This document shows positions 21,242 through 57,214 of a stretch of 64,000 bases of DNA, one piece after another. The DNA is taken from the NCBI GenBank assembly GCA_963798675.1, contig CAWCUJ010000046.1, positions 55,390 through 119,389 of the forward strand. Reading direction: 5' to 3'. Made by a program: the position numbers and the translations under genes. Position 1 is the stretch's first letter. Each line of letters opens with the position of its first letter. Below the pieces are notes generated by a model. The model was not told the DNA's origin and did not search any database. It was given only the letters and a program-made list of their open reading frames with translations. The stretch is from an uncultured Actinomycetes bacterium. GTDB taxonomy: Bacteria > Actinomycetota > Actinomycetes > Streptosporangiales > Streptosporangiaceae.

Positions 21242-22600
<1,359 letters not shown>

Positions 22601-28628: not shown

Positions 28629-28732
28629 CGCGAGTTGCCCGATCGGCTTCAGGCCCGTGGCCCGCGTCGTCACCAGGCGGTCAAGGCCGTTTAGCGGAGT
28701 GTTGCTAGAGGTTGGTGACGACGCATGTCGGC

Positions 28733-29545
28733 CTAGACCGTCTGTGTTATAGCGATTGGATATCCAATAGTGCTGGGCGCGCGATCCAGATATCTATCTG
28801 GAAAAAACATTCTGATTCTGTAAACTACGTTTACCAATTTAGGCGGTCCGATGTGCAGATTCAGACGACTCAAGAGATCGAGCATGGAGATATGCTCGCC
28901 AGTATCGCCATGGTAACGATAAGCACCTGTATCGTCCCTTAGAGGATAACTGAGCTCGGCCATTGCCGCCAGCATTGTGAGCCCGCTTATCCTGCCCTCA
29001 ACTCTTCCATCTGCCGGATAGTTCTCAACCAGGTACAGAGGGGCGGGCTCCACTGCGGGCTCTTCGCACTCAGATAGCCACATGGTCATGTCGTCCTGCG
29101 CATAAGGCCTGCCTTGGGGATGTATTGTCATGGTTTGCAGGAAACATTCTTCTCTTCGAAAAGGAACGATTTGGTCAGCGCGGCGCTCCAGCCATTGCTG
29201 CTCCCTCTCCTTATGTCCCCTGCCGTCGCGTATTAGAGCTTCTTCCTGAAGATAATTGATAACCTTACTGTACTTATCTACTATCGAGGCATCGATCAGC
29301 TGAGTGCCGATTTGCACGCCGACCGAAGGCGGAATTCCTGCATTGAAGCTCAGAGTTGGGATAAACCGTCGTCGCCGACGTCCGGATATCTGCTCATAAT
29401 AACTATTGATTCGATTGACATCAAGGTATATGTAATCCACGAGTACCATTGAGAAATATATGTCCTTATCTAGATGGATTAGTTCTTGTATCGAGCGATT
29501 GAGAGCATCCTCTAGATCGTGACTTAGATAAACGCTCCTGCGCAA
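28733..29545 (-). CDS. Hypothetical cytoplasmic protein, no recognisable family
   Basis: 270-aa ORF (TTG start in the track; alternative ATG at codon 33). No signal peptide or TM span. Convergent with 27843..28628. Confidence 0.65.
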   Translation of the reverse strand: MRRSVYLSHDLEDALNRSIQELIHLDKDIYFSMVLVDYIYLDVNRINSYYEQISGRRRRRFIPTLSFNAGIPPSVGVQIGTQLIDASIVDKYSKVINYLQEEALIRDGRGHKEREQQWLERRADQIVPFRREECFLQTMTIHPQGRPYAQDDMTMWLSECEEPAVEPAPLYLVENYPADGRVEGRISGLTMLAAMAELSYPLRDDTGAYRYHGDTGEHISMLDLLSRLNLHIGPPKLVNVVYRIRMFFPDRYLDRAPSTIGYPIAITQTV

Positions 29546-29598
29546 GAGTCAGTCGGCACGCCCTCGACGGCTCGTCACCAGCTTGGCACCATCGATTG

Positions 29599-29859
29599 GT
29601 GGCCTGGCAGTCCGGCGACGGAGCGCTCGCGAACGTCGCGCTCGACCGGGCCGCCGCCGACGAGCCGCGGTACTCGATGGCCCTGCTGCTCCGGCAGGTG
29701 ATCAGCGCCGGGGCGCCTCCGTCGCTGGCCAGGCTGCCGATGACACCGGAGGAGGTGGCCGCCAGCTACGACGACGCCGAGGAGAACGACCTGGCGGGGA
29801 GCCATGACCACTACCTGGACCCAGATGTCCACGACCCGGAACCGGCGGGCGAACGATGA
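29599..29859 (+). pseudogene. DUF4192 copy 2, 3' part
   Basis: 7 mismatches over 261 nt against copy 1 (23818-24078). Corresponds to ORF 29596..29859. Confidence 0.8.
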
Positions 29860-29997
29860 GGTCAGGACGATGGCAAAGGGAGAGACCCCGGTTGGCAAGA
29901 TACACTGCCTGGGGCGTTCGTCCAGCTCAGTACGGATCTCGCTCGTTTGCCCGCCCCGGCCGTTTCCATGATGGGTGACAGCCGTTAAACCGGAAGG

Positions 29998-31446
29998 ATG
30001 CCCGTGGTGGATGCTCGCATGACTGCCGACGCGCATGAGGTCGAGGTGGCCCGGTTGCGTGAGGCCTACGCGGCCCTGCCCCCGGGGGCGCCGGTGCGGC
30101 TGGCCAAGCGCACCTCCAACCTGTTCAGGTTCCGTGACGCCGACCCAAAGACCCCGCAGAACCCAAAGATCCCGAAGAGCCCGCTGACTCCCGCGGAGAA
30201 AACCGCGCGGGCTGACCGGGGCCTGGACGTTTCCGCGTTCGGCCACGTGCTTTGCGTTGATCCCGCCACCAGGACGGCGCGGGTCGGAGGCATGACCACC
30301 TACGAGCACCTATGCGACGCGACGCTCAGGCATCAGCTGATGCCGCTCGTGGTGCCCCAGCTCAAGACGATCACTCTCGGCGGCGCGGTCACCGGGCTCG
30401 GCATCGAATCCACCGCGCTGCGCAGCGGGATGCCGCACGAGTCCGTCACCGAGATGGAGATCCTGACCGGCGACGGGCGCGTTATCCGCGCCACCGACGA
30501 CAACGAGCATGCCGACCTGTTCCGCGGCTTCCCGAACTCCTACGGGACGCTGGGCTACTCGCTGTCGCTCACCGTCGAGCTCGAGCCGGTCCAGCCGTTC
30601 GTGCATATTCGCCACTTCCCGTTCGGCACCGCGGCAGCCTGCATGGACGCGATCAGCCAGATCGCCGCGGACGGCAGCTTCCACGGCCACCGGGCGGATT
30701 TCGTCGACGGCACCGCGTTCGGCCCCGATGAGCTTTACCTCACCGTCGGGGCGTTCAGCGACGTGGCGCCGTGGCGCAGCGACTTCACCGGGCAGCAGAT
30801 CTACTACGAATCGGTCCGGCGGGATAAGGAGGACTTCCTGACCATCCGCGACTACCTGTGGCGCTGGGACACCGACTGGTTCTGGTGCTCGCGACCCTTC
30901 GGGGTACAGAAACCTCTGGTCAGAAAGATGTGGCCGCGTCGTTACCGACGCTCGGACGTCTACCGCAAACTGGTCGCCCTGGACCACCGGTATGGCCTCT
31001 TCGACTTCGTGAATGCGCGGCGGCACCTACCGCCACGGGAGAGGGTCATCCAGGACGTAGAGGTCCCGGTCGAACGTGGTGCCGAGTTCCTACGATTTTT
31101 CCAGGAAAAGGTGGGAATGAGTCCGGTGTGGATGTGCCCGCTGCGGCTGCGCGGCGAGCGGATCTGGCCTCTCTATCCCCTACGGCCCGGCGAGGTATAC
31201 GTGAACTTCGGGTTCTGGGGAACCGTGCCGCTGCCCGCGGGCCAGGCCGACGGCTACCACAACCGCCTCGTCGAGGACGAGGTCGCGAGGCTGGACGGGC
31301 ACAAATCGCTGTATTCCACGTCGTTCTACGCCGAGGACGAGTTCTACCGGAAATACAACGGCGAGGCCTACCGCGCGCTCAAGCGCGCCTACGACGGCGA
31401 GGGCCGCCTGCTCGGCCTGTATGAGAAATGCGTCAGGGGACGCTAA
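29998..31446 (+). CDS. bfaA: FAD-binding oxidoreductase, BfaA-like (10-methyl branched fatty acid synthesis)
   Basis: FAD_binding_4-type N-terminus (ITLGGAVTGLGIESTALRSGMPHE, YGTLGY). Immediately followed by a Cfa-family methyltransferase, as in the mycobacterial bfaAB pair. Confidence 0.6.
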   Translation: MPVVDARMTADAHEVEVARLREAYAALPPGAPVRLAKRTSNLFRFRDADPKTPQNPKIPKSPLTPAEKTARADRGLDVSAFGHVLCVDPATRTARVGGMTTYEHLCDATLRHQLMPLVVPQLKTITLGGAVTGLGIESTALRSGMPHESVTEMEILTGDGRVIRATDDNEHADLFRGFPNSYGTLGYSLSLTVELEPVQPFVHIRHFPFGTAAACMDAISQIAADGSFHGHRADFVDGTAFGPDELYLTVGAFSDVAPWRSDFTGQQIYYESVRRDKEDFLTIRDYLWRWDTDWFWCSRPFGVQKPLVRKMWPRRYRRSDVYRKLVALDHRYGLFDFVNARRHLPPRERVIQDVEVPVERGAEFLRFFQEKVGMSPVWMCPLRLRGERIWPLYPLRPGEVYVNFGFWGTVPLPAGQADGYHNRLVEDEVARLDGHKSLYSTSFYAEDEFYRKYNGEAYRALKRAYDGEGRLLGLYEKCVRGR

Positions 31447-38533: not shown

Positions 38534-39430
38534 TCAGACGCGGCGGAGCACGGCGACGACGCGGCCGAGGATGCTGGCCTCGTCGCCGAGGATCGGCGTG
38601 TAGGCCGGGTTGTGCGGAATCAGCCAGACGTGCCCGTCGCTCTGCTTGAACGTCTTTACCGTCGCCTCGCCGTCCAGCATGGCCGCCACGATCTCGCCGT
38701 TCTCCGCGACCGGCTGCTCCCGGACCACCACCCAGTCCCCGTCGGCGATGGCGGCGTTGATCATCGAATCGCCGGCCACCTTCAGCAGGAACAGCGTGCC
38801 CTCGCCGACCAGCTGCCTGGGCAGCGGGAACACGTCTTCGATCGCCTGCTCGGCTAGGATCGGGCCGCCCGCCGCGATCCGCCCGACCAGCGGCACGTAG
38901 GCCGCCTCCTGCGACGGGATGTCGATGCCGGGGATGTCGCCGGCCTCTTCCTCCTCCCGGCTGGCCTCCCGGCCCGGCGCCGGCCGCACCGCCGGGTGAC
39001 CAGGCAGCCGCACCTCGACCGTCCGCGGCCGGCCCACGTCCCGGTGCAGGTATCCCTTGCGCTGCAGCGTGCTGAGCTGGTACGAGACGCTTGACGTGCT
39101 GGTCAGGCCGACAGCCTCGCCGATCTCGCGCATCGACGGCGGGTAGCCGCGCTTCTGCACCGACTCGCGGATGACCTGGAGCACCTTGCGCTGCCGCCAG
39201 GTCAGCACGTGGTCGGGGTCGGGCTTGTCCGGGGTCTCCGGGATGACGACCGGCACGCTGCCCTTCGGCTTGCGCCCTGGCCGCCCCTTAGGTCTGGGCG
39301 CCTCCGTTGGATCTGTGCCGGAAGCACCGGTTGCGGCGCCTCCCATGGCGGTTTCCTCCATCTGATGACCTTCCGTGTCCGAGTTCTTGCGTGCTGAGTA
39401 GAGAGTAACGGTTCTCGCCCGAGATCCCAA
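38534..39430 (-). CDS. lexA: LexA repressor (chromosomal copy)
   Basis: w[27 protein letters not shown]. Cleavage site [10 protein letters not shown]24 catalytic GDSM and TVKTFK. The likely real start is the internal MEETAMGG (about 39361). Confidence 0.9.
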
Positions 39431-40334: not shown

Positions 40335-40931
40335 GTGTACTGCCCCTTCTGCCGTCATCCGGACAGCAGGGTCATCGACAGCAGGACGGCAGACGACGGC
40401 GCCGCGATCCGCCGCCGGAGGTCGTGCCCGGAGTGCGGGCGGCGGTTCACCACCCAGGAGACGGTCATCTTGATGGTGGCCAAGCGCAGCGGTGTCACGG
40501 AGCCGTTCACCCGGGACAAGATCATCCATGGCGTGCAGCGCGCGTGTCAGGGACGGCCGGTCAGCGAGGACAAGCTGGCGATCCTGGCCCAGCAGGTGGA
40601 GGAGACGATCAGGGCGCGGGGGCTGGCCGAAGTTCCCTCGCACGAGGTGGGCCTGGCCATCCTGGGCCCGCTGAGGGATCTGGACGAGGTGGCCTACCTG
40701 AGGTTCGCCTCGGTCTACCGAGGGTTCGAGTCGCTCGCCGACTTCGAGAATGAGATCACCGCCCTGCGCCGGAGCCGCCGTGACGACGCGGCCAAGGCCG
40801 ACGTCGCGACGAAGGCCCGCGGCGAGCCTGGAACCGGCGCCGTAAGGGCGGCATCAGAGTTGTCATTGTTGCGGCCAGGCCATGCAGGGCCTGTCAGGGA
40901 TCCGGCGGATCCCGGAAGGGGGACGAAATGA
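40335..40931 (+). CDS. nrdR: Transcriptional repressor NrdR
   Basis: GTG start after [24 protein letters not shown]...[10 protein letters not shown] zinc ribbon plus an ATP-cone. Its stop overlaps the nrdJ start. Confidence 0.9.
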
Positions 40932-43900
40932 CGGAGACGGTGAGCGGCGCGACGACCCGCAAGGGGAAGGCAGCCCAAGCCCAGGCCGGACCGAGCAAGC
41001 TCACGATCGGGCGCATCCACACCACCCCGGGCGTGCACCCCTATGACCAGGTGACCTGGGAACGCCGGGACGTCGTGATGACGAACTGGCGGGACGGCTC
41101 GGTCAACTTCGAGCAGCGCGGCGTAGAGTTTCCCGACTTCTGGTCGGTGAACGCCGCCAACATCGTGACCACCAAGTATTTCCGCGGCGCGGTCGGCTCA
41201 CCGCAGCGCGAGTGGAGCCTCAAGCAGCTCGTGGACCGGGTCGTCGATACCTACGAGAAGGCAGGCCGGGAGCACGGCTACTTCGCCACCGCCGAGGACG
41301 CCGAGATCTTCGGCCACGAGCTCAGGTACGCCCTGGTCCACCAGGTCTTCAGCTTCAACTCCCCCGTCTGGTTCAACGTCGGCACCGCGTCCCCGCAGCA
41401 GGTCAGCGCGTGCCAGCCGTACGGCGCGTTGGTAAGCACGCCCGCAGGGCTCGTTCCCATCGGCAAGCTGGTCGAACAGGACGCCAAAGGCACCAAGGTC
41501 TATGATGCACACGGCGTGACCCGGATCGTCGCGACTAAGGCAAACGGCGTGAAGCCAGTACTCCGCCTGCACACCAAGGCGGGCTATGCGCTCGACGTAA
41601 CGTCGGATCATCTCGTCTGGCGGTCATCAGATCGCGATACCGGCCGCTTCGTGCCAGCCGGGAGCCTGCAGCCGGGGGACACGCTGCAATGGCATCGGCG
41701 CGATAGTCATGGCGAGGCCGAGATCAGCCGGTGCGAGATCGCCGAAGCAGCGCTGGCTGGCTGGCTGCAATCAGACGGGTTCGTGGGCCAGTACCACGGT
41801 ACGAACCGATCCCTCACTATCGAGGCCATGACGGTTACCGACTCCGAGTTGGCCTGGGTAATCGAGTCGCTGGACCTGCTCTTCCCTCGTGTGCACCGTC
41901 ACGAGCGGCATGTCAGTACGCAGGACGAGCGGCTCGACTGCCGGCGCACCCGGCTGTACGGGGAAGTCCTGCGGGACTTCGTCGATCGCTGGAACTTGCT
42001 AGCCCGCGGCACCGAGATGACGGTCCCGTGCCAGCTCTTCACGGCACCGCTTCCTGTCGTGGCCGCCTATCTGAAGAGCGTCTTCCAGGCCGAGGGATTC
42101 GTGTCGGCGCGCAAATCCTCCACCGTCGTGGAGGTCGACATGATATCCGAGCAGCTCATCAGGGGTATGCAGCAGCTACTGCTCCGCTTCGGCATCTACT
42201 CGCGGGTCGGCTTCAAGCCGGATGCTCGCGCAGACCGCTATGGGTGCTGGACTCTCCGAGTCCAGTCTGCTGGTGATAGGCGCATCTTCGCGGATGCGAT
42301 CGGCTTCGTGGACCCCGTCAAGGCGGCCAAGCTCGAACGGAGCTTTGATCTTCCCGGGCTCTCTGCGCGCGAGACCAAGCGCCTAGAGATCGACCGGATC
42401 GAGGAACTGGGTGTTATGGAGGTCTACGACATCCAGACCGAGAGCGGTGAGTACCTGTCCGGCAACTTGCGGGTCCACAACTGCTTCATCCTGGCCGTGG
42501 ACGACACCATGGACGCCATCCTGGACTGGTACCGGGAGGAGGGACTGATCTTCAAGGGCGGATCGGGCGCCGGCGTCAACCTGTCCAAGATCCGGTCGAG
42601 CAAGGAGCTGCTGTCCTCCGGAGGCACCGCGAGCGGCCCGGTCTCGTTCATGCGCGGCGCCGACGCCTCGGCCGGCACGATCAAGTCGGGCGGCGCCACC
42701 CGGCGCGCGGCCAAGATGGTCGTGCTCGACGTGGACCACCCGGACGTGGCCGACTTCATCACGACCAAGGCACGCGAGGAAGAGAAGGTCCGGGTGCTCC
42801 GCGACGCCGGGTTCGACATGGACCTCGGCGGCAAGGACATCGTCAGCGTCCAGTACCAGAACGCCAACAACTCGGTCCGGGTGTCCGACGAGTTCATGCG
42901 CGCGGTAGAGGAAGGCAAGGAGTTCGACCTGCTGGCCCGGCGCACCGGCGAGGTCGTCGAGCGGGTTGACGCGCGAAAGCTGATGCGCATGATGGCGCAG
43001 GCGGCGTGGGACTGCGCCGATCCCGGCATCCAGTACGACGGCACGATCAACGACTGGCACACCTGCCCCGAATCCGGCCGCATCACCGCCAGCAACCCGT
43101 GCTCCGAGTACATTCACCTGGATAACTCCAGTTGCAACCTCGCCAGCATCAACCTGCTTAAGTTCCTTCGCGACGACGACACCTTCGACGCCGAGCGGTT
43201 CGCGAAGATGACGGAGCTGATCATCACCGCGATGGACATCTCCATCTGCTTCGCCGACTTCCCGACCGAAAAGATCGCCGCCACCACCCGCGCCTACCGG
43301 CAGCTTGGCATCGGCTACGCCAACCTGGGCGCGCTGCTGATGGCCACCGGCCACGCCTACGACTCGGCAGGCGGCCGGGCCATCGCCGCCGCCATTACCT
43401 CGCTGATGACCGCCGCCGCCTACAAGACGTCAGCCGAACTAGCCGCCGCCGTCGGTCCCTACGACGGCTACGAGCGCAACGCCAGGCCGCACAAGCGGGT
43501 CATCCGCAAGCACGCCGACGCCAGCGAGAACATCCGCCCGGCCGGCCCGATGGAACGCGAGATCCTCGACCTGGCCAACGAGACCTGGCAGGAATGCGCC
43601 GAGCTCGGCGAGACAAATGGGTATAGAAACGCCCAAGCTAGCCTATTGGCACCTACAGGCACTATAGGCCTCATGATGGACTGCGACACCACCGGCATCG
43701 AGCCCGACCTGGCCCTGGTCAAGTTCAAGAAGCTAGTCGGCGGCGGCTCCATGCAGATCGTCAACCAGACCGTGCCGCGCGCGCTGAAGAACCTCGGCTA
43801 CCCGCACGAGCAGGCCGAGGCGATCACCGAGTACATCGCCGAGCACGGCCACGTGGTGAACGCCCCCGGGCTTCGGCCCGAGCACTATGAGGTGTTCGAC

Positions 43901-45760
43901 TGCGCGATGGGCGAGCGCGCGATCAGCCCGATGGGCCACGTCCGGATGATGGCCGCCGTCCAACCGCACCTGAGTGGCGCCATTAGCAAGTGCGTGACCG
44001 GGGAGACACTGGTTCCCTCGGCTGAGGGGCTTATCCGGATCGGCAACCTCCATGCTGGCGAAGAAGAGGACAGCTTCCGTGAAGAGCGGCTGGTGATCTC
44101 GTCGCTGGGCGGGGACAGGAAGACCGACGCCTTCTACTACGGCGGAACACGGCCGGTGCGCCGCGTCCGCCTTCGCTCCGGCCACACGATCACAGGCACC
44201 TATCCGCACCGCCTGTTGGTCGCCGGCGAGGGTTGCCTCGAGTGGAAGACGCTCGGCGAGATAGCAGAAGGCGATGCGGTCGCGATTCAATACGGCGCCG
44301 AACTCTGGGCCACGATGCCGGCCGGTCTGCGCGACATCAAGGTCTCCGCTTCTTATGGCAACCAGAAGCAGGTGAGGCTTCCGGAGGAAATGAGTACCGA
44401 GCTTGCCTTCCTCTTGGGTGCCTATGCCGCGGAAGGTCACATCACTCGCACCAACTGGACGATCCGCATCACGAACTCCGTGCCCGGAGTGCTTGAGCGG
44501 GTCCGGCACGCGTGGCAGGAAGTGTTCGGTGTGCAGGCGAGGATGGGAGCGCAACCCGGTAAGTGCCCGGAAGTTGCCGTCTCGTCCAAGGCGATCGTCG
44601 AGTTCTTCGAAGCGCTCGGGTGCGGTTCACGGGCATCGGAGAAGCGCATTCCGGACGCGGTGTTGCGGTCGCCCAGGGAGATGGTGTTGGCGTTCCTGCA
44701 AGGCCTCGCTCTAGATGCGTACGTGACGACCGCAACCCCGAAGTGGGCGATCTGTCTGGACAGCCGGAAGCTGCTCGACGACCTCCAGGTGATCATGACC
44801 AACCTCGGTGTCCTGCACAGCAGGGTGACTAAGCACAACAAGGACAACGGCAAGGATTACGACGAGGTCCATGCCTCCGGGCTGCAGGGGCAGCTGATGG
44901 TCAGCCTCGTCCCGTTCCTGGAACCGGACAAAGCCGCGCGGGCCGCGAAGTTCCTGACGTTGGATTACTCCACCGGCACGGCCGACGTCGTCCCCGGAAT
45001 CACCGGGCGGAAACTCTACGAGATGATCCCACTTGCCAGCGGTCGCGGCAACGGGCGCAGCTGGCGCAACCAGTTCACCTATCTACGCGACCCGCGTACC
45101 CAGCACGTCACCCGGCGCACGCTGGAGCGGGTCTCCACTCTGCCGGGCGTCGAGTTGCCGGGATGGCTCCGTCAAGTGATCGAAGGAAATCTTCACTTCT
45201 CGCCCGTCGACTCGGTGACGGACATGGGTGACGCGGAAGTGTATGACCTTTCGGTGCCAGAAACCCATGCATTTGTCGCCAACGGCATCATGAATCACAA
45301 CACGGTCAACATGCCGGAAAGCGCCACCGTCGAGGAGATCGAGCGGATCTACTTCGAGGGCTGGAAGCTCGGCCTGAAGGCGCTGGCCATCTACCGGGAC
45401 AACTGCAAGGTCGGCCAGCCGCTCTCGGACGCCAGGAAGAAGCCCGCCGAGGCGGGGCCTGCTCAGGCTCCGGCCGCCGTGGCGCACGAGCACCGGCCGG
45501 TCCGCAGGCGGCTGCCCAGGCAGCGGCCCGCCACCGTGACCAGGTTCTCCGTCGCGGGCGCCGAAGGCTACATGACCGCCTCCAGCTACCCGGACGACGG
45601 CGTCGGCGAGGTGTTCCTCAAGCTCGGCAAGCAGGGCTCGACGCTGGCCGGCGTGATGGACGCCTTCTCCATGGCCATCTCGGTCGGCCTGCAGTACGGC
45701 ATCCCGCTTGATTCCTACGTGGCCAAGTTCACCAACATGCGGTTCGAGCGGCCGGCCTGA
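40928..45760 (+). CDS. nrdJ: Class II (B12-dependent) ribonucleotide reductase with two inteins; the frame ends prematurely at 45760
   Basis: Extein blocks [12 protein letters not shown]|[27 protein letters not shown]|TVNMP and AIYRDNCK. See the intein and frameshift entries. Confidence 0.9.
41411..42481 (+). mobile_element. Intein 1 (357 aa) with LAGLIDADG homing endonuclease
   Basis: Starts CQPYGALV and ends LRVHN, followed by +1 Cys (CFILAV). LAGLIDADG-like [12 protein letters not shown] and [15 protein letters not shown]. Confidence 0.9.
43991..45301 (+). mobile_element. Intein 2 (437 aa) with LAGLIDADG homing endonuclease
   Basis: Starts CVTGETLV and ends IMNHN, followed by +1 Thr (TVNMP). 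[14 protein letters not shown] and [14 protein letters not shown]. Confidence 0.9.
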
Positions 45761-48109: not shown

Positions 48110-48370
48110 ATGCGCACCACGATTGACATGTCCCCAACCCTGATGAGAGCGGCCAAGGCACGTGCCGCCGAGCAGGGCGAAAGCCTCAAGGATCTCGTCA
48201 ATCGAGCGGTAGCACATGAAATAGGCCTTCCCGCCACGCCACGGGGGAAGGCGGGGCGCGTGACGCTGCCCCTGATCGCGCGCGACGCCGAGCCGACGGT
48301 CCTCGTCACCAATGAGGACATTGAGGACGCGTTCGACGCCGAGGATGTTGAGAGGTTCGCCGCCCAGTGA
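48110..48370 (+). CDS. Type II antitoxin (VapB-like)
   Basis: 86 aa, MRTTIDMSPTLMRAAKARAAEQGESL. Overlaps the downstream PIN gene by 4 nt. Confidence 0.75.
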   Translation: MRTTIDMSPTLMRAAKARAAEQGESLKDLVNRAVAHEIGLPATPRGKAGRVTLPLIARDAEPTVLVTNEDIEDAFDAEDVERFAAQ

Positions 48371-48792
48371 AGCTGGTAGACGTTGGCTTCTGGTTGGCAG
48401 CCGTCTGGGGACGGCACGTCCACCATCCGGTCGCGGCGGACTGGTTCGGCAGAGAGACGGATGACATCGTCTTCTGCCGGGTTACGCAGATGGGACTGCT
48501 CCGACTGCTGTCCAACCCCGCCGTCATGGGTGACGACGTCATCGACCGCAGCCAAGCATGGCGAACCTACGATCAGCTCTGGGCTGACGAGCGCGTTCTA
48601 TGGGCTGACGAGCCAACCGAACTGGACGCGGTCTGGCGTGCGATCTCCGCGCGTGATGACAAGAGACACAAGCTGTGGACCGATGACTACCTGGCAGCCT
48701 TTGCCCAGGCTAGCGACGCCACGCTGACAACCCTCGACCGCAAGATGCCCGCCCGCTACCCCTCTGTCCAGGTCGAACTGCTGCTCCCCTGA
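48367..48792 (+). CDS. PIN-domain toxin (VapC-like)
   Basis: 141 aa with LVDVGFWLA, and TDDYLAAFAQASDATLTTLD near the C-terminus. Confidence 0.75.
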   Translation: MKLVDVGFWLAAVWGRHVHHPVAADWFGRETDDIVFCRVTQMGLLRLLSNPAVMGDDVIDRSQAWRTYDQLWADERVLWADEPTELDAVWRAISARDDKRHKLWTDDYLAAFAQASDATLTTLDRKMPARYPSVQVELLLP

Positions 48793-48907
48793 CCCTGTCC
48801 GGTGGACATAATGCTTGAGCAGGCGGTCGGCACCGCAATAGTGCACTGCCCCAGTAAATGTGGCCGCTCTTCTGGTAAATGCCCTGCTCGGGTGGGGTGC
48901 AGGTGAG

Positions 48908-49085
48908 CTCCGAAATCGCACGCCGCGTCGGCGAGTTGCTCGGGGAGCGAGCCTTTCGGGCCATCGCTGCGCCATCAACGCTGTCGTGGCGGCTACGGCG
49001 CTTGAACTGGAGCGCCCGGTGGTGTTGCTGACCAGCGACCCGGACGATCGCACCAAGCTCGTGGAGGAACCAGAGCACCCGTCTC
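48908..49085 (+). pseudogene. 3' fragment of a PIN-toxin gene (paralog of 50431..50871)
   Basis: About 178 nt align with 50664-50842 at roughly 88% identity by eye, with a 1-nt indel. Encodes SGHRCAINAVVAATALELERPVVLLTSDPDD. Confidence 0.65.
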
Positions 49086-49158
49086 ATGCGAGCCAACCGC
49101 TGCGGGCGGCGCTGCTGATGTCGACCCAACGTTTCGTATATGTGTTTGATAAACTACG

Positions 49159-49899
49159 TTGTACGATAGTGTGATGGAACACACCTACTGGCAACGGAGG
49201 CTCGGGATGAGACGTGCCAAGGCACCCGATATGACCGGTCCGCACCTTACCGACCGTCAGCGCAAGATCCTCCAGGTCATCGAGGACACCACGCAGGCCT
49301 GCGGTTACCCGCCGACCATGCGGGAGATAGGGGACGCGGTCGGGCTGGCGAGTACGTCGAGTGTCTCTTATCAGCTATCGGTGCTGGCGGAGAAGGGATA
49401 CCTGAGCCGTGGTACCGGGCGCCCGCGCACGGCGGTGGTGCGCCTGCTCAATTCTCCGGGTATCGCGGAGCATGCTGATCGCGCGGATGGTGACACCGAG
49501 AGGCGGACAATAGCTCGCGTACCGCTGGTCGGCCGTATCGCCGCCGGCGGTCCGATTCTCGCCGACGAACTGATCGAGGACGTCATCCCTCTGCCCAGAC
49601 AACTGGTCGGCGAGGGTGAGCTCATCGCGCTCAAGGTCGTGGGTGATTCGATGATCGGCGCCGCGATCGCCGACGGCGACTGGGTGGTTGTCCGCCGGGA
49701 GTCGGACGTCGAGAACGGCGACATCGTTGCGGCCATGATCGAGAGCGATACGTCGGCGGACAGGGAGGCAACGGTCAAGACGTTCAAGAAGACCGACGGG
49801 CACGTCTGGTTGATTCCGCACAACCCCGCTTTCACCCCGATCCCAGGCGATGAGGCCAAGGTCCTCGGCAAGGTAGTCGCCGTGCTGCGCCGGGTCTGA
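49159..49899 (+). CDS. Second LexA-like S24 repressor (island-borne)
   Basis: [37 protein letters not shown] and TVKTFKK, all retained. There is an extra insert ESDTSADR relative to the chromosomal LexA. The likely real start is MTGPHLTD (about 49231). Confidence 0.85.
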
Positions 49900-49981
49900 C
49901 GCTCACGGGCTCGCTGGAGAGCCGCCTGATGTGCCGAATGCCAGGCCACGTCAGGTTTACTACCGGTGGTAGCATCAAACC

Positions 49982-50449
49982 ATGAGTGCTGACCCGGCCC
50001 GCACCGAAGGCCAGGCTGAAGGTCAGGATGAGCATCTGCAGGAGCTAATGCGGTGCGTCCGTGCCCTGGAGGAGTACGCGCCAGCCGAAATAGCCAAGCT
50101 GCTCGCGTCACCTGGGTTGACGGACTACGCCAGGCGTGCCGTCGAGGCCGTTGCCGCCCTTCAAATGGCGGCGCATTACCCGGACATCGTTGCGGGCCGC
50201 ATAGTCGCGGAGGTCAAGTACGCCAGCCCGGCCCGCAAAGTCAGCGTGTCGATGCCAGAGGACCTCACCGCGGCTGTCCAACAGCGTGTTGGGCGCGGGA
50301 AGTTCAGCCAGTACGTAACCGAGGCCGTTACCCGGCAGCTCGAGATGGACATGCTCGATGAACTGTCGGCATTGCTTACCTCGGAGCATGGTCCGGTTCC
50401 CGAGGAATACCTGGCAGAGGCAAGGGCTGCATGGCCGGACGGCGAATAG
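49982..50449 (+). CDS. RHH-type antitoxin with an N-terminal extension of about 75 aa
   Basis: C-terminal KVSVSMPEDLTAAVQQRVGRGKFSQYVTEAVTRQL (CopG/RHH-like). Overlaps the downstream PIN gene. Confidence 0.65.
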   Translation: MSADPARTEGQAEGQDEHLQELMRCVRALEEYAPAEIAKLLASPGLTDYARRAVEAVAALQMAAHYPDIVAGRIVAEVKYASPARKVSVSMPEDLTAAVQQRVGRGKFSQYVTEAVTRQLEMDMLDELSALLTSEHGPVPEEYLAEARAAWPDGE

Positions 50450-50871
50450 CCGCAGGTGGCACTCTCGTCCTCGATAGTGAAGGACTCGCTAAGCTAGCGG
50501 CGGGCGATGCGCGCACCCGCGGCTATCTTGATAGCGCCCGCGCCCGCGCCCGCGGAGCCCGGGTGGCCGTGAGTGCGATCACGCTGACCGAGGCACTTAG
50601 GGGCGGCGCGCGCGATGCGGCCGTTTACCGTGTGCTATCCAGAATCACCGTCGTGCCAGTGAGCCCTGAGATAGCACGCCGCGCCGGTGAGTTGCTCGGG
50701 CAGACAGGCCTTTCGGGTCATCGCTGCGCCATCAACGCTGTCGTTGCCGCCACGGCGCTTGAACTCCAGCGCCCGGTCGTGTTGCTGACCAGCGACCCGG
50801 ATGATCTGAACAGGCTGGTCGAAGAGCCAGAACGACCGAAGGCGCAGCGCATCACCGTCGTCCACGTGTGA
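50431..50871 (+). CDS. PIN-domain toxin
   Basis: LVLDSEGLAKLA...AINAVVAATALELQRPVVLLTSDPDDL. Confidence 0.75.
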   Translation: MAGRRIAAGGTLVLDSEGLAKLAAGDARTRGYLDSARARARGARVAVSAITLTEALRGGARDAAVYRVLSRITVVPVSPEIARRAGELLGQTGLSGHRCAINAVVAATALELQRPVVLLTSDPDDLNRLVEEPERPKAQRITVVHV

Positions 50872-50932: not shown

Positions 50933-53536
50933 CTAGCCGCCGCCGAAGCACACGAACGGGCTGAACGGCTCGGTGGCCGTGGCCCCGGCGAGCGCCTCGG
51001 CGGGCCGGGTCCCGGCTGCGAGCAGGCGATGATAGGCGGTCATCGTGCCGACGGCGGCATCGTCGGCCACCCGGGTGACGCTAGAGGTCACGGTGGCGGT
51101 GCCCATGTAGAGCAGGGCCGCGGTGAAGCCGAGGATCTCCTCGCCGGGACGCACGACGGTCCGCCCGACATCGCAAGATGACAGGACTACGTGCCGGGGA
51201 GCGGCCGTGAGCTGCTGGATGTCGTAGGCCATGAGCGGGCCGTCGGCCAGGTCGAGCCTGGAGAACAGGAAATTCTCCTGGTCGTGGTGCCCGTGCGCGG
51301 CCAGGTGGGCGAGGGGGGCGCCGTCGAGGGCCCGCAACGCGGCGCTGACGGTGGCCGCATCCGCGAGCAGCGGGCGGCAACCCGGATAGGACGTGGCGAT
51401 CTCGGTGACTTCCCGGGCCGCGTGCTCCAGATCCGGTCCCGCGACCAGCAGCGGCTTGCCGGACGGCGGCCACGTCGCGTCGGCCTGCCCGCGCCGCCAG
51501 GCGGCCAGCCATGAGGACGCTGACGGGCACACGGTGACCGGGCGGCCGCGCAAGTCAGGCAGCACGCCCCAGGGAATGCCGGCCAGCGGGCCCGCCGGGA
51601 TGACGACGATGCCGCGGTCGGCGATCGAAGTGCGCAGCGGCGCGATGATCTCGGCCGTCAGCGTTTCCGCCTGACGCCGGATCGACTCCCTGATCACAAC
51701 CTCGAGGCGGGCGGGCAGCCGCCGCCCGGCCAGGGTGTCAAGATCGGCGTTCAGCCGCCTGGCTGCCTCGGCGGCGGCTTCGAAGTCGCCGAGCCCGATG
51801 AGGCGCGCAGATCCGCTCCGCACGACCACCGCGACCATCTGGCCGCGCCGGGCCAGGATGGCGACCAGGCTCTGCCCGCTCTCGTCCAGGGCCGCGCTCA
51901 CCTCGCCGAGGCTGGCCTGCGCGGTGGCCTGACCCAGACCGCTGGCCTGCCAGCTGTGTTCCCTGATATCGCGCTGCAGCGAGGCGTGCCTGGCGATCAT
52001 CGAAGGGTCGCGGTGGCCGTTCAGCTCGGCATGGCGGATCAGGTAGCTGAGCTGGCGCAGCTCCGCCAGGACGGCCGCCGTCTGCGGGTCGGCGGGCGGG
52101 CGTACCGGCCTGACCCGGAACGCCTGGGCCCGGGAGCGTTCCAGCCAGGCAAATACGAGTGGCGCGGATTTCCGGTCAAGCACCAGCCGCAGGCCAGCGT
52201 CGGCCAGATCCGCACCGAGGGCGGCGGTGCCGGTCTGCAGGTCAACGCTGCCGAGCCGACCGCGCTGGACCTGCACCAGCGCCAGGCCTGCCCGAAGCTC
52301 AGCCAGCGCCGCCCCGGTCTGCCCCTCCCGCTCGGCCAGCTCGGCCCGCACCAATCGGCGCAGCAGGCTGACGGCCAGCGGCACGCCGGCCCTGCGCCGG
52401 CGCACCATCTCCAGGCGTCGCCTGGCCTCATCCGGACGCCCGGCCGCGAGCAGAGCGCGGGCCGCGAGCAACTCGGCCATGTCCGCGTCGTTGGCCAGGC
52501 CGCGGTCGCGCAGCCGCTCGGCCAGCACCAGCGTTTCGGCGACGATGGGCGCCTGGTGTCGTGGTGCGATTGACCGTGCCCGCAGCCGGGTGAGCTCGGC
52601 CACGTAGGCCCAGGCGGCGTTGCCTCGCCGCCGGAAGCGCCGCTCGGCGGCAGCCGCCCACTGGCGCGCTGCCGCCAGCTCTCCAGCGGCCAGCGCCGCT
52701 TGCGCCCGGGTCAGCTGGGCTTCGGCAAGATTTTGATCAAGCCGTTGCCGCCGGGAGGAGGCCATCGCGGCGTCGAGCTCACTGGCCGCGTCGCTGGCCA
52801 GCCCGGCGGCGAGCAGCGCCGCGGCCTTGTCTGTCGCCAGCACGAGGAGAAAGCCGGGAGCGCTCAGCCGGTATGCGTTGGCGGCCACGTTGAACAGCTG
52901 CAGCGCGGCCGGAATGTCGCCGGCCAGCAGGTCGCAGTAACCCAGATTGTGCAGCGCCTTGGCCGCGATCAGGTCGTGGCCCTCATCCGTCGCGACGCGC
53001 CGGCACCAGACCAGGTCGGTGCGCGCCTGCCGGACCTGGCCGAGGCTGAGGTAGGCGAAGCTGCGATTCAGCAGGGCGCTCGCGAGGTTCGCGGTCTCCG
53101 CCGGGTTTCCCTTCAGCTGGGCCACCGCATCGTCGAGCACCTTCAGCGCGTCGCGTTCCCGCCCGGTCCGCATGAAGATCAGGCCTCGCTGGAGAAGCAG
53201 GATGCCTCGGTCATCGGCCGCGGTCAGACGTTCGGCGTGATCCAGGAGGCGGAGCCCGTACTCGGTGCGGCCCAGCTCGGATTCCCACTCGGCCAAGATC
53301 CCGAGGAGCCTGGCGGCCAGGCCATGGTGCATCTCGTGCACCCGCCGCGCGTCGGGTTGCCTCCCGTTTTCCGTCCAGCCCAGCTGCCGCAGTCCCGCGC
53401 GGGCGTAGCGGGCGCCGATCGCGGGGCGGCCCGCGTTGCCCTCCCGCAGGCCGCGCTGGCGCGCCTCGCGGGCCCGGGTCTCGGCGCGAGCGAGCGAACT
53501 GGGGGAGCGGGCTGAGCGCCGCTCGGCGCGGGGCAT
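50933..53536 (-). CDS. TPR-repeat CHAT-domain (caspase-like) protease
   Basis: About 600 aa of TPR-like repeats, then a CHAT domain with the His/Cys dyad (HLAAHGHHD, VVLSSCDVGR). Confidence 0.85.
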   Translation of the reverse strand: MPRAERRSARSPSSLARAETRAREARQRGLREGNAGRPAIGARYARAGLRQLGWTENGRQPDARRVHEMHHGLAARLLGILAEWESELGRTEYGLRLLDHAERLTAADDRGILLLQRGLIFMRTGRERDALKVLDDAVAQLKGNPAETANLASALLNRSFAYLSLGQVRQARTDLVWCRRVATDEGHDLIAAKALHNLGYCDLLAGDIPAALQLFNVAANAYRLSAPGFLLVLATDKAAALLAAGLASDAASELDAAMASSRRQRLDQNLAEAQLTRAQAALAAGELAAARQWAAAAERRFRRRGNAAWAYVAELTRLRARSIAPRHQAPIVAETLVLAERLRDRGLANDADMAELLAARALLAAGRPDEARRRLEMVRRRRAGVPLAVSLLRRLVRAELAEREGQTGAALAELRAGLALVQVQRGRLGSVDLQTGTAALGADLADAGLRLVLDRKSAPLVFAWLERSRAQAFRVRPVRPPADPQTAAVLAELRQLSYLIRHAELNGHRDPSMIARHASLQRDIREHSWQASGLGQATAQASLGEVSAALDESGQSLVAILARRGQMVAVVVRSGSARLIGLGDFEAAAEAARRLNADLDTLAGRRLPARLEVVIRESIRRQAETLTAEIIAPLRTSIADRGIVVIPAGPLAGIPWGVLPDLRGRPVTVCPSASSWLAAWRRGQADATWPPSGKPLLVAGPDLEHAAREVTEIATSYPGCRPLLADAATVSAALRALDGAPLAHLAAHGHHDQENFLFSRLDLADGPLMAYDIQQLTAAPRHVVLSSCDVGRTVVRPGEEILGFTAALLYMGTATVTSSVTRVADDAAVGTMTAYHRLLAAGTRPAEALAGATATEPFSPFVCFGGG

Positions 53537-53562
53537 CCGGCGGGAGCCTCCCAGCTGGCCGG

Positions 53563-54075
53563 TCAGAGAATGAGCGCGGGGGTCACCACAGACCGCCCGC
53601 CTCCGCCGGGTTCGGCCTCGGCCGGGCGGACCACGAGCTGAGCCGGCCCCCGGGGAACTCGGGGGAAAGCGAACCGCCCCTGGTCGTCGCTGGCCACGTT
53701 CAGTGAACCGGCTGCGGTCTTCATCTCGATCTCGCGGCGCTGCGGTGGCGCCAGCCAGCCGTCAACGCGCGCCGTCCCGTCGCGGTTCGCGTCGATCCGG
53801 ATCATGATGGTCAGGCTGTCGCTGTCGAAGGTAATCGTCCGGCTCTGCTCCACGCCGCGAGCAGCGACGGCCGGCCGGTCCTCCTCCGCGGCCAGCCGGG
53901 CCACCTCGATCTCGAGGTCCCGCAGCGCGAGGGAGAAGCGGATCCGCTCAGGAAGATCCGCCGGCATGGGGTCAGCGGCCTCGAACAGCCCGCGGATGTC
54001 GTCAAGCAACCCGAAATCGGCGTCATCGAGCGGCTCGTCAGCCGACGGCCGCCCGCCCGCATCCGAGACCATCAT
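53563..54075 (-). CDS. 170-aa acidic protein with a CarboxypepD_reg-like C-terminus (candidate anti-sigma or protease substrate)
   Basis: ATGA overlap with the sigma-gene stop. N-terminus DDADFGLLDDIRGLFEAADPMPADLPERIRFSLALRDLEIEVARL. C-terminus DDQGRFAFPRVPRGPAQLVV. No TM span and no zinc anti-sigma motif. Confidence 0.7.
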   Translation of the reverse strand: MMVSDAGGRPSADEPLDDADFGLLDDIRGLFEAADPMPADLPERIRFSLALRDLEIEVARLAAEEDRPAVAARGVEQSRTITFDSDSLTIMIRIDANRDGTARVDGWLAPPQRREIEMKTAAGSLNVASDDQGRFAFPRVPRGPAQLVVRPAEAEPGGGGRSVVTPALIL

Positions 54076-54686
54076 CGCGGACTCCCCTGCGGGTCACCGG
54101 CGAGCAGGGTGCGGAGCTTGGCCAGGCAGCGACCGCGAGTGGGACCGATGCTCCCGACCGGCATGCCGAGTGCGGCCGCTACCGTGGCGTAATCCGGACG
54201 CGGCGAGAACGCGATGATCCGCAGCAGGTCCTGGCACCGTCCGGAGAGCCGGCCGATGGCTACCCACAGCGCACGTCGCTGGTCATCGAGGATGACCTGC
54301 TCCTCCGATCCGGGGCGCTCGTCGGGCAGCCCGGCCAGCAATTCCTGATCCGCGGGAAGCTGCCTGCGCCCGGCGGCGCGTACCCGCCACGCTTCCCGCT
54401 TCGCGGTGGTGACCAGCCAGCCGACCAGGGCCGCCGAGTCGTGGATATTGTCCAGGTGAGCGACCAGGCGCAGCCATACCGTCTGCAGCACGTCTTCGGC
54501 ATCACCCGAACTCAGCCCGGCAGCGCGCGCGATCTGCCACAGCAGCGGGCTGAGTTCGGTCACGATCTGGCCGAGCGCGTCGTCGTTCCCCTCCCGGGCC
54601 GCGCTGACCAGGCCCGCGATGCGCGCGCCTCGGTCTGTCTGACTCGCCCGCACCGTGACGGGCCCAAGCGGTCCCGGGCCGTCCAC
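54072..54686 (-). CDS. ECF-type sigma-70 family factor
   Basis: Region 2 DAEDVLQTVWLRLV; region 4 DYATVAAALGMPVGSIGPTRGRCLAKLR. The candidate GTG at 54686 abuts the S8 stop. The long ORF-track extension to 55226 overlaps the S8 gene. Confidence 0.8.
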   Translation of the reverse strand: MDGPGPLGPVTVRASQTDRGARIAGLVSAAREGNDDALGQIVTELSPLLWQIARAAGLSSGDAEDVLQTVWLRLVAHLDNIHDSAALVGWLVTTAKREAWRVRAAGRRQLPADQELLAGLPDERPGSEEQVILDDQRRALWVAIGRLSGRCQDLLRIIAFSPRPDYATVAAALGMPVGSIGPTRGRCLAKLRTLLAGDPQGSPR

Positions 54687-54688
54687 GA

Positions 54689-56587
54689 TCAGCCCTCCCA
54701 GCCCATGTCCTTCAGGGCGGCCAGCACGCGGTTCGTCGTGGTCTGCGCATCGGAGGGGTCGAGCCGCAAGCCAGACTGGGCTGCTCCCGTCAGCAGCGAC
54801 CGAACGATCTCCGCGGCCAGCAGCGGAGCCGAGAACGACGTGCCACTCCAGACCCCGAACCCGCCCGCGTAGTCGTCTGGATCGAGGGCGGCGCGGAAGC
54901 CGGGCAGCGAGACGCCCGGCGGCATCGGGTTGGCCGGATGCGCCCGCATCCGGAGTTCCGGGCTGCGGCTGGCGTTGATGTCCGTCGGCAGGGTGCTGAC
55001 CACGGCCGCGCCCGAGGCCCAGGCCGTGACCCAGTGGCCCCCGTCGCTGAACATCGCCTTGGACCCGTTCGGGTTGAGCGCGCCCACGCTGATCAGCGGC
55101 ACCTGACCCGCAGGAACCGGACGCTGCGCGAACGCCGCCGGATAGAACTTGCGGCTGGTGGCGAAGTTCCCGGCCGCGGCGACGACGACCACCCCCATGC
55201 CGAGCAGCGCCTCGATCGCCTGCCATAGCGCCGAGTCGAGGGCCGCGTCGCTGGCCTCGCTGAAGTAGCCGAGGGACAGCGACACCACGTCGACCATCTT
55301 GGCCGGGTCGCCTGCCGCCTGAGCAGCGGCGACCCGGTTGGCCAGCTCATGCAGGGCGCACAGGAGATCGCCTTCGTAGACAGCGCCGTCGCCGTGCATG
55401 ATCCGGATGGCCAGGACCCGGGCATCGGGTGCGAGCTGGCGCACGATGCCCGAGATGAACGTGCTGTGGCCCGTGTCCGTCGCAAGCTCGCCCAGCAGCG
55501 GATCCGTGGTGATCGGCGTGTCCCATGGACGCCTGATCACCTGGCGCGGTCGGTCGCCGTGCGCCTCCGTGTCCTCGTCCTGCACGCGGATGGCGTCCTG
55601 AATCTCGTGATCGAGCTCGATGAAACCGTCGCCGTCCCCGTTGGGGTCGGTGTTGTAGCCGCCGCCGTGCTTGGCCGTCACATCCAGCCACGGGTGGGCG
55701 CGGACGCCCGTGTCCAGGACGGCGACCACCGCACGCCGGCCGTACACGCTCACGCAGTCCGCAGCCGACATGCGCCTCGGCGGATCGAGCAACACGGCCA
55801 CCGGGGCACGCGAGTCGCCGCCGCTGAACAGGTAGGAGTCAGTGCTGGTGGGCCCGGAACCGTCGTTGTTGGTGCCCGGCCCCCCGCCGATGCCGCCGCC
55901 TCCACTGTAGGCCGGGCTCCCGCTGATAGCGGAGCCGATAAGCAGGTGTTCGAGCCCGATCCCGTCGACGTCTGCCTGGTCCAGGTTCCCATCATGCTTC
56001 CCGGCCCTGGTGGCCGCGCGCAGCGTCTGCAGCGCCCGCCACGCGTCGACCTCGACCGGCCTATCGCCGCCCTTGGCCGGGACCAGCGCTACGGGGCGGG
56101 GCAGTTGCGGCAGGACATCGATGCTCTGTCTGCTGCCGCGGTTCTTGCCGGTGCCCGGCGCAGACGCGACCAGGTTCACCCCGATCCGGTCGAGGATCTT
56201 GTTAAGGGCGTTGATCGGCTCCTGCCCATGCAAGTTGCCGGGAACCAGCAGGGTCTTGGCCCGGTACACCGTCGACTGGGGCGGCGGGTAACCGTCGACC
56301 GCCACGGCCGTCCCGGGGTCGAGCACCCGGGCGCCGTGCCGTAGCAGCATGGCTGCGGGCAGGCTGATCAGGCCGGCCGCCGCGTCATCGTCCCGGGATC
56401 TTGCTCCGTTACCGGCAGGACGTCCCTGGAAGAACCATTTCGCGTTCGGCTCTCGCATGGCATCGCACCTCATCCTGAATCGGCCATCGCGGCAATCCCG
56501 CACAGCTGGAGCGAGTGCCTCCACCCGCTTAGAGCGGCCCCAGGGACCCAGAAATACGCGAGTCCAGGTAACGGATCGGTAACTCAT
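54689..56587 (-). CDS. S8 (subtilisin-like) serine peptidase with an unknown N-terminal region of about 280 aa
   Basis: Triad blocks VAVLDTGV, DTGHSTFISG and SGTSFSAPLLAAE. The likely start is the internal MREPNAKW (about 56458). Confidence 0.85.
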   Translation of the reverse strand: MSYRSVTWTRVFLGPWGRSKRVEALAPAVRDCRDGRFRMRCDAMREPNAKWFFQGRPAGNGARSRDDDAAAGLISLPAAMLLRHGARVLDPGTAVAVDGYPPPQSTVYRAKTLLVPGNLHGQEPINALNKILDRIGVNLVASAPGTGKNRGSRQSIDVLPQLPRPVALVPAKGGDRPVEVDAWRALQTLRAATRAGKHDGNLDQADVDGIGLEHLLIGSAISGSPAYSGGGGIGGGPGTNNDGSGPTSTDSYLFSGGDSRAPVAVLLDPPRRMSAADCVSVYGRRAVVAVLDTGVRAHPWLDVTAKHGGGYNTDPNGDGDGFIELDHEIQDAIRVQDEDTEAHGDRPRQVIRRPWDTPITTDPLLGELATDTGHSTFISGIVRQLAPDARVLAIRIMHGDGAVYEGDLLCALHELANRVAAAQAAGDPAKMVDVVSLSLGYFSEASDAALDSALWQAIEALLGMGVVVVAAAGNFATSRKFYPAAFAQRPVPAGQVPLISVGALNPNGSKAMFSDGGHWVTAWASGAAVVSTLPTDINASRSPELRMRAHPANPMPPGVSLPGFRAALDPDDYAGGFGVWSGTSFSAPLLAAEIVRSLLTGAAQSGLRLDPSDAQTTTNRVLAALKDMGWEG

Positions 56588-56691: not shown

Positions 56692-57214
56692 TTACCGCGG
56701 TACCGTCAGCAGCGTCTTGCCGATCGTCGTCCGGGCCTCGATCGCCGCGTGCGCACCGGCGGCCGCGGCCAGCTCGAATTCCTGGCCGATGACCGGCCGC
56801 AGCCGGCCCTCGGCGGCCTCGGCCAGGGCCGTCCGGACTAGTGCCGCCAGTTCCTCCGGGCTCGCCGCCGCGCCGGGTAGCACCGAGACTTGCCTGGCCC
56901 GAGCGAGTTCGGCCGTGACCGGGGCAAAGCTCCCGCTGGCCATGCCGAACGGGCAGAACCGCCCGCCGGCTGGCCACCACCCGGCGCCCGGCCCCGGCCA
57001 CCGTGCCGCCGACGCCGTTGCCCAGGATGGCCGGCAGCGCCGGGAGCATCGACCTATGGGGCGGCTTACCGGCCCGGACCTGCGTCTCGACGAACGTCAC
57101 GTTGGCGAGTTCGACGTCGATGACCACCTCGCCCTGGCCAGCCCGGACCTCGTCCACCTCGGCGGGCTCGAGCACCTCAGGCGGCCCGAACTCCCGCATC
57201 ACCACGGCACGCAC
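56692..57214 (-). pseudogene. Quinone oxidoreductase/MDR-family gene with an internal deletion and frameshift
   Basis: N-terminus MRAVVMREFGPPEVLEPAEVDEVRAGQGEVVIDVELANV (ORF 56615..57214). The C-terminus GRLRPVIGQEFELAAAAGAHAAIEARTTIGKTLL is in another frame (56692..56943). The Rossmann core is missing. Confidence 0.7.

Follow-up and report, generated by a model that had tools for sequence, protein, structure and literature searches.

We describe a four-gene operon in a 64,000-nucleotide (nt) stretch of DNA, hereafter the window, from an uncultured bacterium of the Streptosporangiaceae (contig CAWCUJ010000046.1, positions 55,390 to 119,389). The operon lies on the minus strand and encodes, in this order, an S8 subtilase, a sigma factor of the extracytoplasmic function (ECF) type, an acidic protein of 170 amino acids (aa), here named p170, and a TPR-CHAT protease. 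The locus belongs to a catalogued, experimentally uncharacterised kind, because the literature on the sigma factor group ECF54 describes the same gene context. We lean toward reading this ECF54-type module as a sigma switch gated by proteases, with a core formed by the sigma factor and p170. A protease-controlled switch is the most economical reading, because the four genes are co-conserved and both proteases keep their catalytic residues.

The open reading frames (ORFs) and their translations showed four tightly packed genes, as had been described in the first-pass annotation. The S8 gene (54689–56458, minus strand, 589 aa) ends with the TGA at 54691–54689, which is followed by “tc” and then by the GTG start of the sigma gene at 54686 (54072–54686, minus strand, 204 aa), leaving a 2-nt gap. 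The ATGA at 54075–54072 joins the sigma TGA to the overlapping ATG of p170 (53563–54075, minus strand). Between the p170 stop and the ATG of the TPR-CHAT gene at 53536 (50933–53536, minus strand, 867 aa) there are 26 nt (53562–53537), with a GGGAGG inside. A generic scan for sigma-70 promoters and terminators gave no internal element above chance within the operon, which fits a single transcription unit. Rfam and tRNA scans of the operon and its leader found nothing. No signal peptide or transmembrane span was detected in any of the four proteins, so that all four components are predicted to be cytoplasmic.

The cassette was compared across about 90 loci, of which three came from genomes and 80 from metagenomes; several contigs with distant p170 members made up the rest. 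The genome loci came from a scan of a genome collection with the single p170 sequence, and the metagenome scan used a narrower p170 alignment. The order S8-sigma-p170-CHAT, on one strand and with tiny gaps, was found in essentially every locus with enough flanking DNA. It was kept both in loci with 71–95% p170 identity and in distant ones with 33–60%, where the overlap or abutment of the sigma and p170 genes also recurred. In the homologous loci, the CHAT gene was always the next one after p170. The cassette of the cultured Nonomuraea gerenzanensis had identities of 45% for p170, 55% for sigma, 48% for CHAT and 34% for S8. The flanking genes varied between lineages. Co-conservation of the neighborhood had been set beforehand as the test on which the proposed system would stand or fall, and it was passed, with the same order and tight spacing amid differing flanks.

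The named sources of the cassette were, besides N. gerenzanensis, metagenome-assembled genomes named Streptosporangiaceae, Mycobacteriales, Kineosporiaceae and Actinomycetota, and soil metagenomes. The operon looks vertically inherited in actinobacteria, rather than patchy like defence genes, because it was near-universal in the sampled clade and spread over several actinomycete lineages. The N. gerenzanensis cassette is complete and lies on an 11.85-Mb replicon, almost unannotated and filed as “plasmid I” in PLSDB (NZ_LT559118.1, 5026196–5040690; L094). In L093, on a contig of a 10-Mb actinobacterial genome, a 583-aa protein without Pfam match (3909–5660) precedes S8 on the same strand, and may be a lineage-specific fifth cassette gene.

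Two loci, L052 and L047, kept sigma and p170 and had lost both proteases. In L052 (sigma at 1287–1898, p170 at ~1931–2401) the upstream alcohol dehydrogenase (ADH) gene is the same as in the window, and the promoter motif described below stands directly before sigma. On sequence grounds, these loci single out the pair of sigma and p170 as the core, because they retain only these two genes, in L052 with the same promoter motif.

Our definition of ECF54 follows a review devoted to non-canonical ECF sigma factors (PMC8999054), whose sources for this group are Huang et al. 2015 and Casas-Pastor et al. 2021, together with the latter paper itself (PMC7826278). The review describes ECF54 as actinobacterial, without anti-sigma factor and with “carboxypeptidase, subtilase and CHAT” proteins in its context, and lists a Geodermatophilus protein as model member (SFT86700.1, Geodermatophilus amargosae). 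The 2021 re-classification (PMC7826278) added a 4Fe-4S protein near ECF54 genes, which it took for a putative new regulator or target. Regulation by proteolysis was proposed for ECF54 in both papers, without experiment, and proteolysis-based control has experimental support for AntA only (PMC8999054). The window and the related loci with enough flank showed this context: a (weakly) carboxypeptidase-regulatory-like protein, S8 and CHAT were encoded beside sigma, and the homologous cassettes were distributed in actinobacteria. No recognizable anti-sigma domain (ASD/ZAS) was encoded next to sigma. The literature on ECF54 differs from our reading in that the small protein is not considered there as a possible anti-sigma factor. 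Our literature search found no experimental paper on a stand-alone system of TPR-CHAT, S8 and ECF sigma. The first-pass annotation was not aware of any such system having been characterised, which agrees with our search as to experiments, whereas the arrangement itself had already been catalogued as ECF54 and its proteolytic control already proposed.

The S8 protein matched Peptidase_S8 in Pfam (E=4e-15) and subtilisins in the PDB (~5e-9). All four motifs AVLDTG, DTGHSTF, AAAGN and GTSFSAP were present. The residues D249, H331, N431 and S541 correspond to the Asp-His-Ser triad plus the oxyanion Asn, in subtilase order. Triad and oxyanion Asn were kept in 21/21 correctly extracted homologues, some with as little as ~35–46% identity; a 22nd (L079) was in the wrong frame and was left out. 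The start of this gene had been placed at 56587 in the first-pass annotation. We moved it to the ATG at 56458, because the N-terminus M-(R/P)-E-P...WFFQ is common to the homologues, the public gene call on the source sequence gives 589 aa, and a conserved non-coding motif (56583–56529) falls within the longer ORF begun at 56587.

Toward its N-terminus the S8 protein has a conserved, propeptide-like alpha/beta domain (aa ~35–175, nt 55934–56356), followed by a Gly-rich disordered linker (aa 176–223) and the catalytic domain (aa ~240–589). Its AlphaFold2 model had a predicted template modelling score of 0.75 and a mean predicted local distance difference test (pLDDT) of 64. Matches at E~1e-7 confirmed the subtilase fold. 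The best structural matches were unprocessed pro-subtilisins, with 520–590 aligned columns against ~350–375 for mature enzymes. This likeness of the model to unprocessed pro-subtilisins suggests, with moderate evidence, that the S8 protein is a latent, propeptide-bearing intracellular subtilase.

The TPR-CHAT protease matched CHAT (PF12770, E=1e-28), TPR_12 and TPR_19 in Pfam. A TPR/helical region (aa ~80–600) precedes the caspase-like CHAT domain (aa 621–853, nt 50978–51676), with His748 and Cys788 as predicted catalytic dyad. The histidine motif H-x-A-x-HG-x-H was found in 41/41 distinct CHAT homologues, down to 42% identity. The Cys of the LSSCDVG block was kept in all 41/41 as well, and the other changes in this block were conservative. 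Intact S8 triad blocks and an intact CHAT dyad had already been noted from the window, and their conservation across both families bears this out, pointing toward two probably active proteases. By sequence, the CHAT protein gave no match to any PDB chain, Csx29 included. Membership in the Csx29 family was rejected (NF041237, 12.6 bits vs. a cut-off of 300 bits).

The sigma factor matched TIGR02937 (sigma70-ECF, E=3e-16) and Sigma70_r2 (E=1e-8). Among the NCBIfam models only this superfamily model passed, and no equivalog model reached its cut-off. Sigma identity was 55–90% among the cassette homologues and 45–50% in the distant ones. The closest solved sigma was CnrH (4cxf, E=5e-11), compared with which the N-terminus of the operon sigma is ~16 residues longer.

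p170 is acidic (30 D+E vs. 20 K+R), most of all in its N-terminal 70 aa (18 vs. 7). It has no Cys, no His and no hydrophobic span, so the earlier description as an acidic protein without transmembrane span or zinc anti-sigma motif holds. Its AlphaFold2 model, built from a 75-sequence alignment, had a pLDDT of 89, falling to 66–72 in a linker. Two helices (aa 18–34 and 41–66, nt 53878–54024) form an acidic two-helix hairpin. The lower-confidence linker follows (aa 67–77) and leads to a seven-strand beta-sandwich (aa 78–151, domain nt 53566–53844). The sandwich agrees with the beta C-terminus described in the first-pass annotation, while its likeness to CarboxypepD_reg is a weak match below the Pfam cut-off (E=0.012).

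Clustering of the large p170 family at 90% identity gave 1381 clusters; at 50% identity there were 1171 (E<1e-3), nearly all of 150–185 aa. P38, R73, F83, W107, G133 and F135 were invariant in 75/75 diverse sequences. Arg73 (codon 53859–53857), in the linker, is the sole invariant charged residue of the family and has small residues beside it; the linker motif reads [G/A][A/V]-R-[G/S/A]-x-[E/D], with R in 75/75. Several clan-CD peptidases prefer Arg at P1. By analogy, the Arg73 linker would suit a clan-CD protease such as CHAT, if that preference applies here, although cleavage of p170 at Arg73 appears doubtful to us.

Neither Pfam nor NCBIfam gave an anti-sigma match for p170. A homology to Csx30 or to known anti-sigma factors, which had been put forward for checking, was likewise rejected: the PDB profile search matched the beta-sandwich only weakly (E~0.08), to a PA1324/carbohydrate-binding-like motif, and Foldseek of the p170 model against the PDB returned nothing below E=1e-3, with generic beta-sandwiches and no Csx30 or anti-sigma among the matches. 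No sigma-p170 fusion protein was present among the 150 best family representatives; a single 300-aa match looks chimeric.

We nevertheless keep an anti-sigma role for p170, which we judge about as probable as not. In its favor, the p170 gene takes the +1 position, where anti-sigma factors are usually encoded, overlaps the sigma stop and survives with sigma when the proteases are lost. Further, the confident acidic helical hairpin suits binding, and the exposed linker carries an invariant Arg. CnrY, the partner of CnrH, is a short two-helix anti-sigma factor of class II. Its two-helix binding segment resembles the N-terminus of p170, whereas CnrY is membrane-anchored and signalled from the periplasm. 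Sequence similarity between p170 and CnrY was not detected.

A different division of roles would have S8 and/or CHAT degrade or process sigma itself, so that it stays off or is matured, with p170 as adaptor, chaperone or protease inhibitor. It would account for the missing anti-sigma domain in p170, and the ~16 extra N-terminal residues of sigma relative to CnrH could be a pro-segment. There is also a precedent for a small protease-inhibitor gene beside a sigma gene in PCi (10.1101/2023.06.23.546230). Against it, the sigma-p170 pair persists without either protease in L052 and L047, which fits a direct partnership better than a protease accessory. Moreover, the stop-start overlap of sigma and p170 is conserved across the family, and in the Foldseek search the p170 beta-sandwich had no significant match to protease inhibitors. 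We therefore consider this division of roles unlikely.

Upstream of the operon we found a conserved promoter-like block (56529–56583, minus strand), ~70–95 nt before the S8 ATG at 56458. It consists of two GTTAC repeats (56583–56579 and 56572–56568), a GTATTT (56557–56552) and a CTCTAA (56534–56529), the last two standing 17 nt apart (16 nt and a G). The pattern GTTAY-N6-GTTAY-N10-GTAYYT was unique in the window and had 0 matches in 100 shuffles. It occurred once in each of 26 loci, before S8 in 25 of them and before sigma in L052, which has no S8. The alignment of 35 distinct upstream regions gave GTTAyC-N5-GTTAy-N10-GTATyT-N16/17-CTCTnA, in which the columns of GTAT and CTCT showed the highest conservation. 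The core GTATC(T/A)-N16-CTC was also found in the distant loci L088 and L091, and Nonomuraea had a similar GTTAT...GTATCG-N14-CTCT upstream. From these sequences we infer that the block is the operon promoter, possibly used by the operon’s own sigma. The GTTAY repeat and GTATYT were rejected as -35/-10 elements, as their spacers of 9–10 or 20–21 nt do not fit; GTATYT-N16/17-CTCTnA fits better.

The tandem GTTAY repeats look like a candidate binding site for a separate regulator. Such a site would agree with an arrangement in which the four genes are merely co-transcribed sigma targets, a proteolytic stress or developmental output without mutual regulation, and sigma is controlled elsewhere, for example via these repeats. 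In the same direction, Casas-Pastor et al. 2021 point out that conserved neighbors may be regulators or targets (PMC7826278). Two features of the cassette make this very improbable. Throughout the family, the sigma and p170 genes lie enclosed by those of the proteases and their translation is coupled, and cytoplasmic proteases that look regulated, with a TPR sensor or a propeptide-like domain, are unlikely to be bulk output enzymes.

The protease-gated switch could work as follows. One transcript from the promoter-like block would carry S8, sigma, p170 and CHAT in order, and translational coupling would produce p170 1:1 with sigma. The acidic two-helix hairpin of p170 would then hold sigma inactive, as a soluble, zinc-free anti-sigma. 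A cytoplasmic signal would be sensed by the TPR region of CHAT and/or relieve the propeptide-like domain of S8, switching on proteolysis of p170, with the Arg73 linker as candidate cleavage site. The freed sigma would transcribe its regulon, probably including its own operon. In this scheme we infer the binding of sigma to p170, the pairing of protease and substrate, the signal and the regulon.

A broader version goes further. The TPR-CHAT protease, cued intracellularly, would either cut p170 at Arg73 or first activate the pro-subtilase, which would then destroy p170. This would make p170 a new class of soluble, zinc-free anti-sigma and the operon a self-contained, CRISPR-independent cytoplasmic proteolytic cascade, a proposal that we offer tentatively and regard as rather less probable than the switch itself. 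The specific sequence CHAT to S8 to p170 is an unlikely form of it.

The first-pass annotation had already proposed a protease-gated switch with p170 as anti-sigma or substrate. Co-conservation and the intact active sites speak for this proposal, while the role of p170 is presumed, as is its binding to sigma. Several points weigh against the switch. p170 matches no known anti-sigma domain, neither by sequence nor by fold (Pfam, PDB profile, Foldseek), and its invariant Arg could be structural instead of a cleavage site. In the S8 model half of the catalytic domain is of low confidence, with a pLDDT below 50 at 458–541, and the structural matches have modest TM-scores (0.34–0.36 on the query). 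The spacing in the upstream block differs by ~3 nt in Nonomuraea, making its -35/-10 parsing uncertain. The literature suggests that the ECF54 sigma itself is degraded, and that the neighbors may be targets rather than regulators (PMC8999054, PMC7826278). Finally, the sigma is a putative ECF54 member, assigned by gene context, and the 4Fe-4S neighbor was not seen: no Fer4-type Pfam match occurred among the called genes of L004, L005, L088, L089 and L093. This neighbor is accessory to ECF54, not defining.

The scan of neighboring genes found Fic, two PIN toxins and LexA near the operon. The LexA genes at 49159–49899 (plus strand) and 38564–39238 (minus strand) are paralogues, 62% identical and ~10 kb apart. 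The operon-side copy sits in a block with the PIN toxins, in which there is also a PIN-gene remnant (48899–49081). This PIN/antitoxin/LexA block (48110–50871) lies between CHAT and Fic. It is a variable insert, because it is absent from the closest relatives (L007 and L009), in which Fic comes directly after CHAT. The island with Fic, two VapBC-type modules and a second LexA, in which the operon had been said to sit, is thus correct as to the genes nearby and the second LexA copy, and the PIN/LexA insert is not part of the system. On the other side, the upstream TetR-ADH genes were syntenic in about eight loci. The ADH-like gene of the window (56692–57214, minus strand) is broken, with ~110 N-terminal and 26 C-terminal residues matching in one frame; an intact 361-aa version is present in L052.

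These neighbors bring up a further alternative, that the operon serves on its own as a module for anti-phage defence or abortive infection, related to Craspase or to the gasdermin-activating protease systems but lacking CRISPR. CHAT and S8 would then be effectors set off by infection, and sigma would turn on defence genes. PIN toxin-antitoxin modules, the second LexA and Fic follow the operon in the window, and sigma factors are under the control of CHAT proteases in the CRISPR systems of types III-E and III-B as well as in DdvA-DdvS. We regard such a module as quite improbable. The cassette occupies a syntenic position between TetR-ADH and Fic, with the toxin-antitoxin/LexA genes as variable insert, and it is near-universal in the sampled clade, not patchy. 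No Csx30 similarity was found, and the similarity to Csx29 is sub-threshold. The only match in a phage database was an unverified contig with 75–77% GC (L095; MT838002.1, 1–7478, “UNVERIFIED: Bacteriophage sp.”, from human faeces), which carries the whole cassette and looks like a misfiled actinobacterial contig. Membership in a defence system was rejected, as none of the four proteins had a match in PADLOC-DB v2 at E<=0.1. A CRISPR array and cas genes had been reported as absent at first pass. In line with this, no CRISPR-like array was found in the 64-kb window, and no cas-family Pfam match was found among the scanned window neighbors or the called genes of related loci.

Farther from the operon, the ORF at 40928–45760 (plus strand, 1610 aa) encodes a ribonucleotide reductase. 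We annotated it as intein-containing, because its equivalent in L004 has LAGLIDADG and intein-splicing Pfam matches. The GC content drops to 0.54 at 28001–30000, compared with about 0.65–0.73 elsewhere in the window, and this segment may be foreign DNA. Short tandem repeats with periods of 9, 31 and 57 nt, not CRISPR-like, were found at 15000–15533 and 22545–22670.

ECF54 is among the ECF groups without a demonstrated regulator, and recent work has shown, or put forward, a control of sigma factors by CHAT and other proteases in CRISPR-linked immunity (Craspase, SAVED-CHAT, CalpL, DdvA). The arrangement, catalogued as ECF54, and the proteolytic hypothesis were already in print. New here are the p170 architecture with its invariant Arg, the pro-subtilisin-like S8 model, the loci with sigma and p170 only, and the upstream block. 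Experiments can build on the corrected gene starts, on Arg73 as the candidate site of cleavage, on the catalytic residues and the candidate promoter, on the natural protease-less variants and on a cultured host, Nonomuraea gerenzanensis. If the switch and its broader version were true, anti-sigma factors would gain a new class and there would possibly be a cascade of two proteases; a bacterial caspase-like cascade would then serve ordinary transcriptional signalling across many Actinomycetes.

Among known systems, the S8 protein by itself is closest to pro-Tk-subtilisin, pro-subtilisin E and PCSK9, which were the best matches of its model and spanned both the N-terminal and the catalytic domain. 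It differs from these unprocessed pro-subtilisins in its ~140-aa propeptide-like domain, in the ~48-residue Gly-rich linker before the catalytic domain, and in having no secretion signal.

In the type III-E Craspase, Cas7-11/Csx29, with Csx29 being a TPR-CHAT protein, cuts Csx30 and thereby frees CASP-sigma (PMC10028731). Both systems encode together a TPR-CHAT protease, an ECF-like sigma and a small protein that binds sigma as inhibitor in Craspase and would do so here, and the cut in the inhibitor linker has its candidate counterpart at Arg73. In contrast to Craspase, the operon has an extra S8 protease and is without Cas7-11, CRISPR RNA, Csx31 and CRISPR array, and the activating signal here cannot be a target RNA. 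Neither by sequence nor by fold is p170 related to Csx30, and the score of the CHAT protein stays well under the Csx29 cut-off. The parallel to Csx29/Csx30 that had been drawn from the window is therefore one of analogy and not of homology.

DdvA of Myxococcus xanthus is the only characterised anti-sigma that bears a TPR-CHAT domain (PMC11506125). In DdvA-DdvS, too, TPR-CHAT is coupled to the control of an ECF sigma, and CHAT-dependent proteolysis has been hypothesised. The TPR-CHAT part of DdvA lies in the periplasm, in fusion with a transmembrane anti-sigma that binds zinc, and release needs RseP. Here, by contrast, CHAT is a separate protein and predicted to be cytoplasmic, and the candidate anti-sigma has neither zinc motif nor transmembrane helix.

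Two proteases, a sigma and a small protein are also combined in the type III-B SAVED-CHAT system, which acts on PCaspase with PCc-sigma and PCi, and in CalpL-CalpT-CalpS (10.1101/2023.06.23.546230). Shared with these is the concept of a protease that activates another protease or cuts an anti-sigma. They differ from the operon in being triggered by cyclic oligoadenylates via SAVED, in having a caspase or Lon as second protease instead of a subtilase, and in their link to CRISPR or CBASS. The operon is thus not a member of the Craspase, SAVED-CHAT/CalpL or DdvA systems. If it is a protease-gated switch with a new kind of anti-sigma, the defence systems would appear to have taken over a design from ordinary signalling, or ordinary signalling to have taken it from them.

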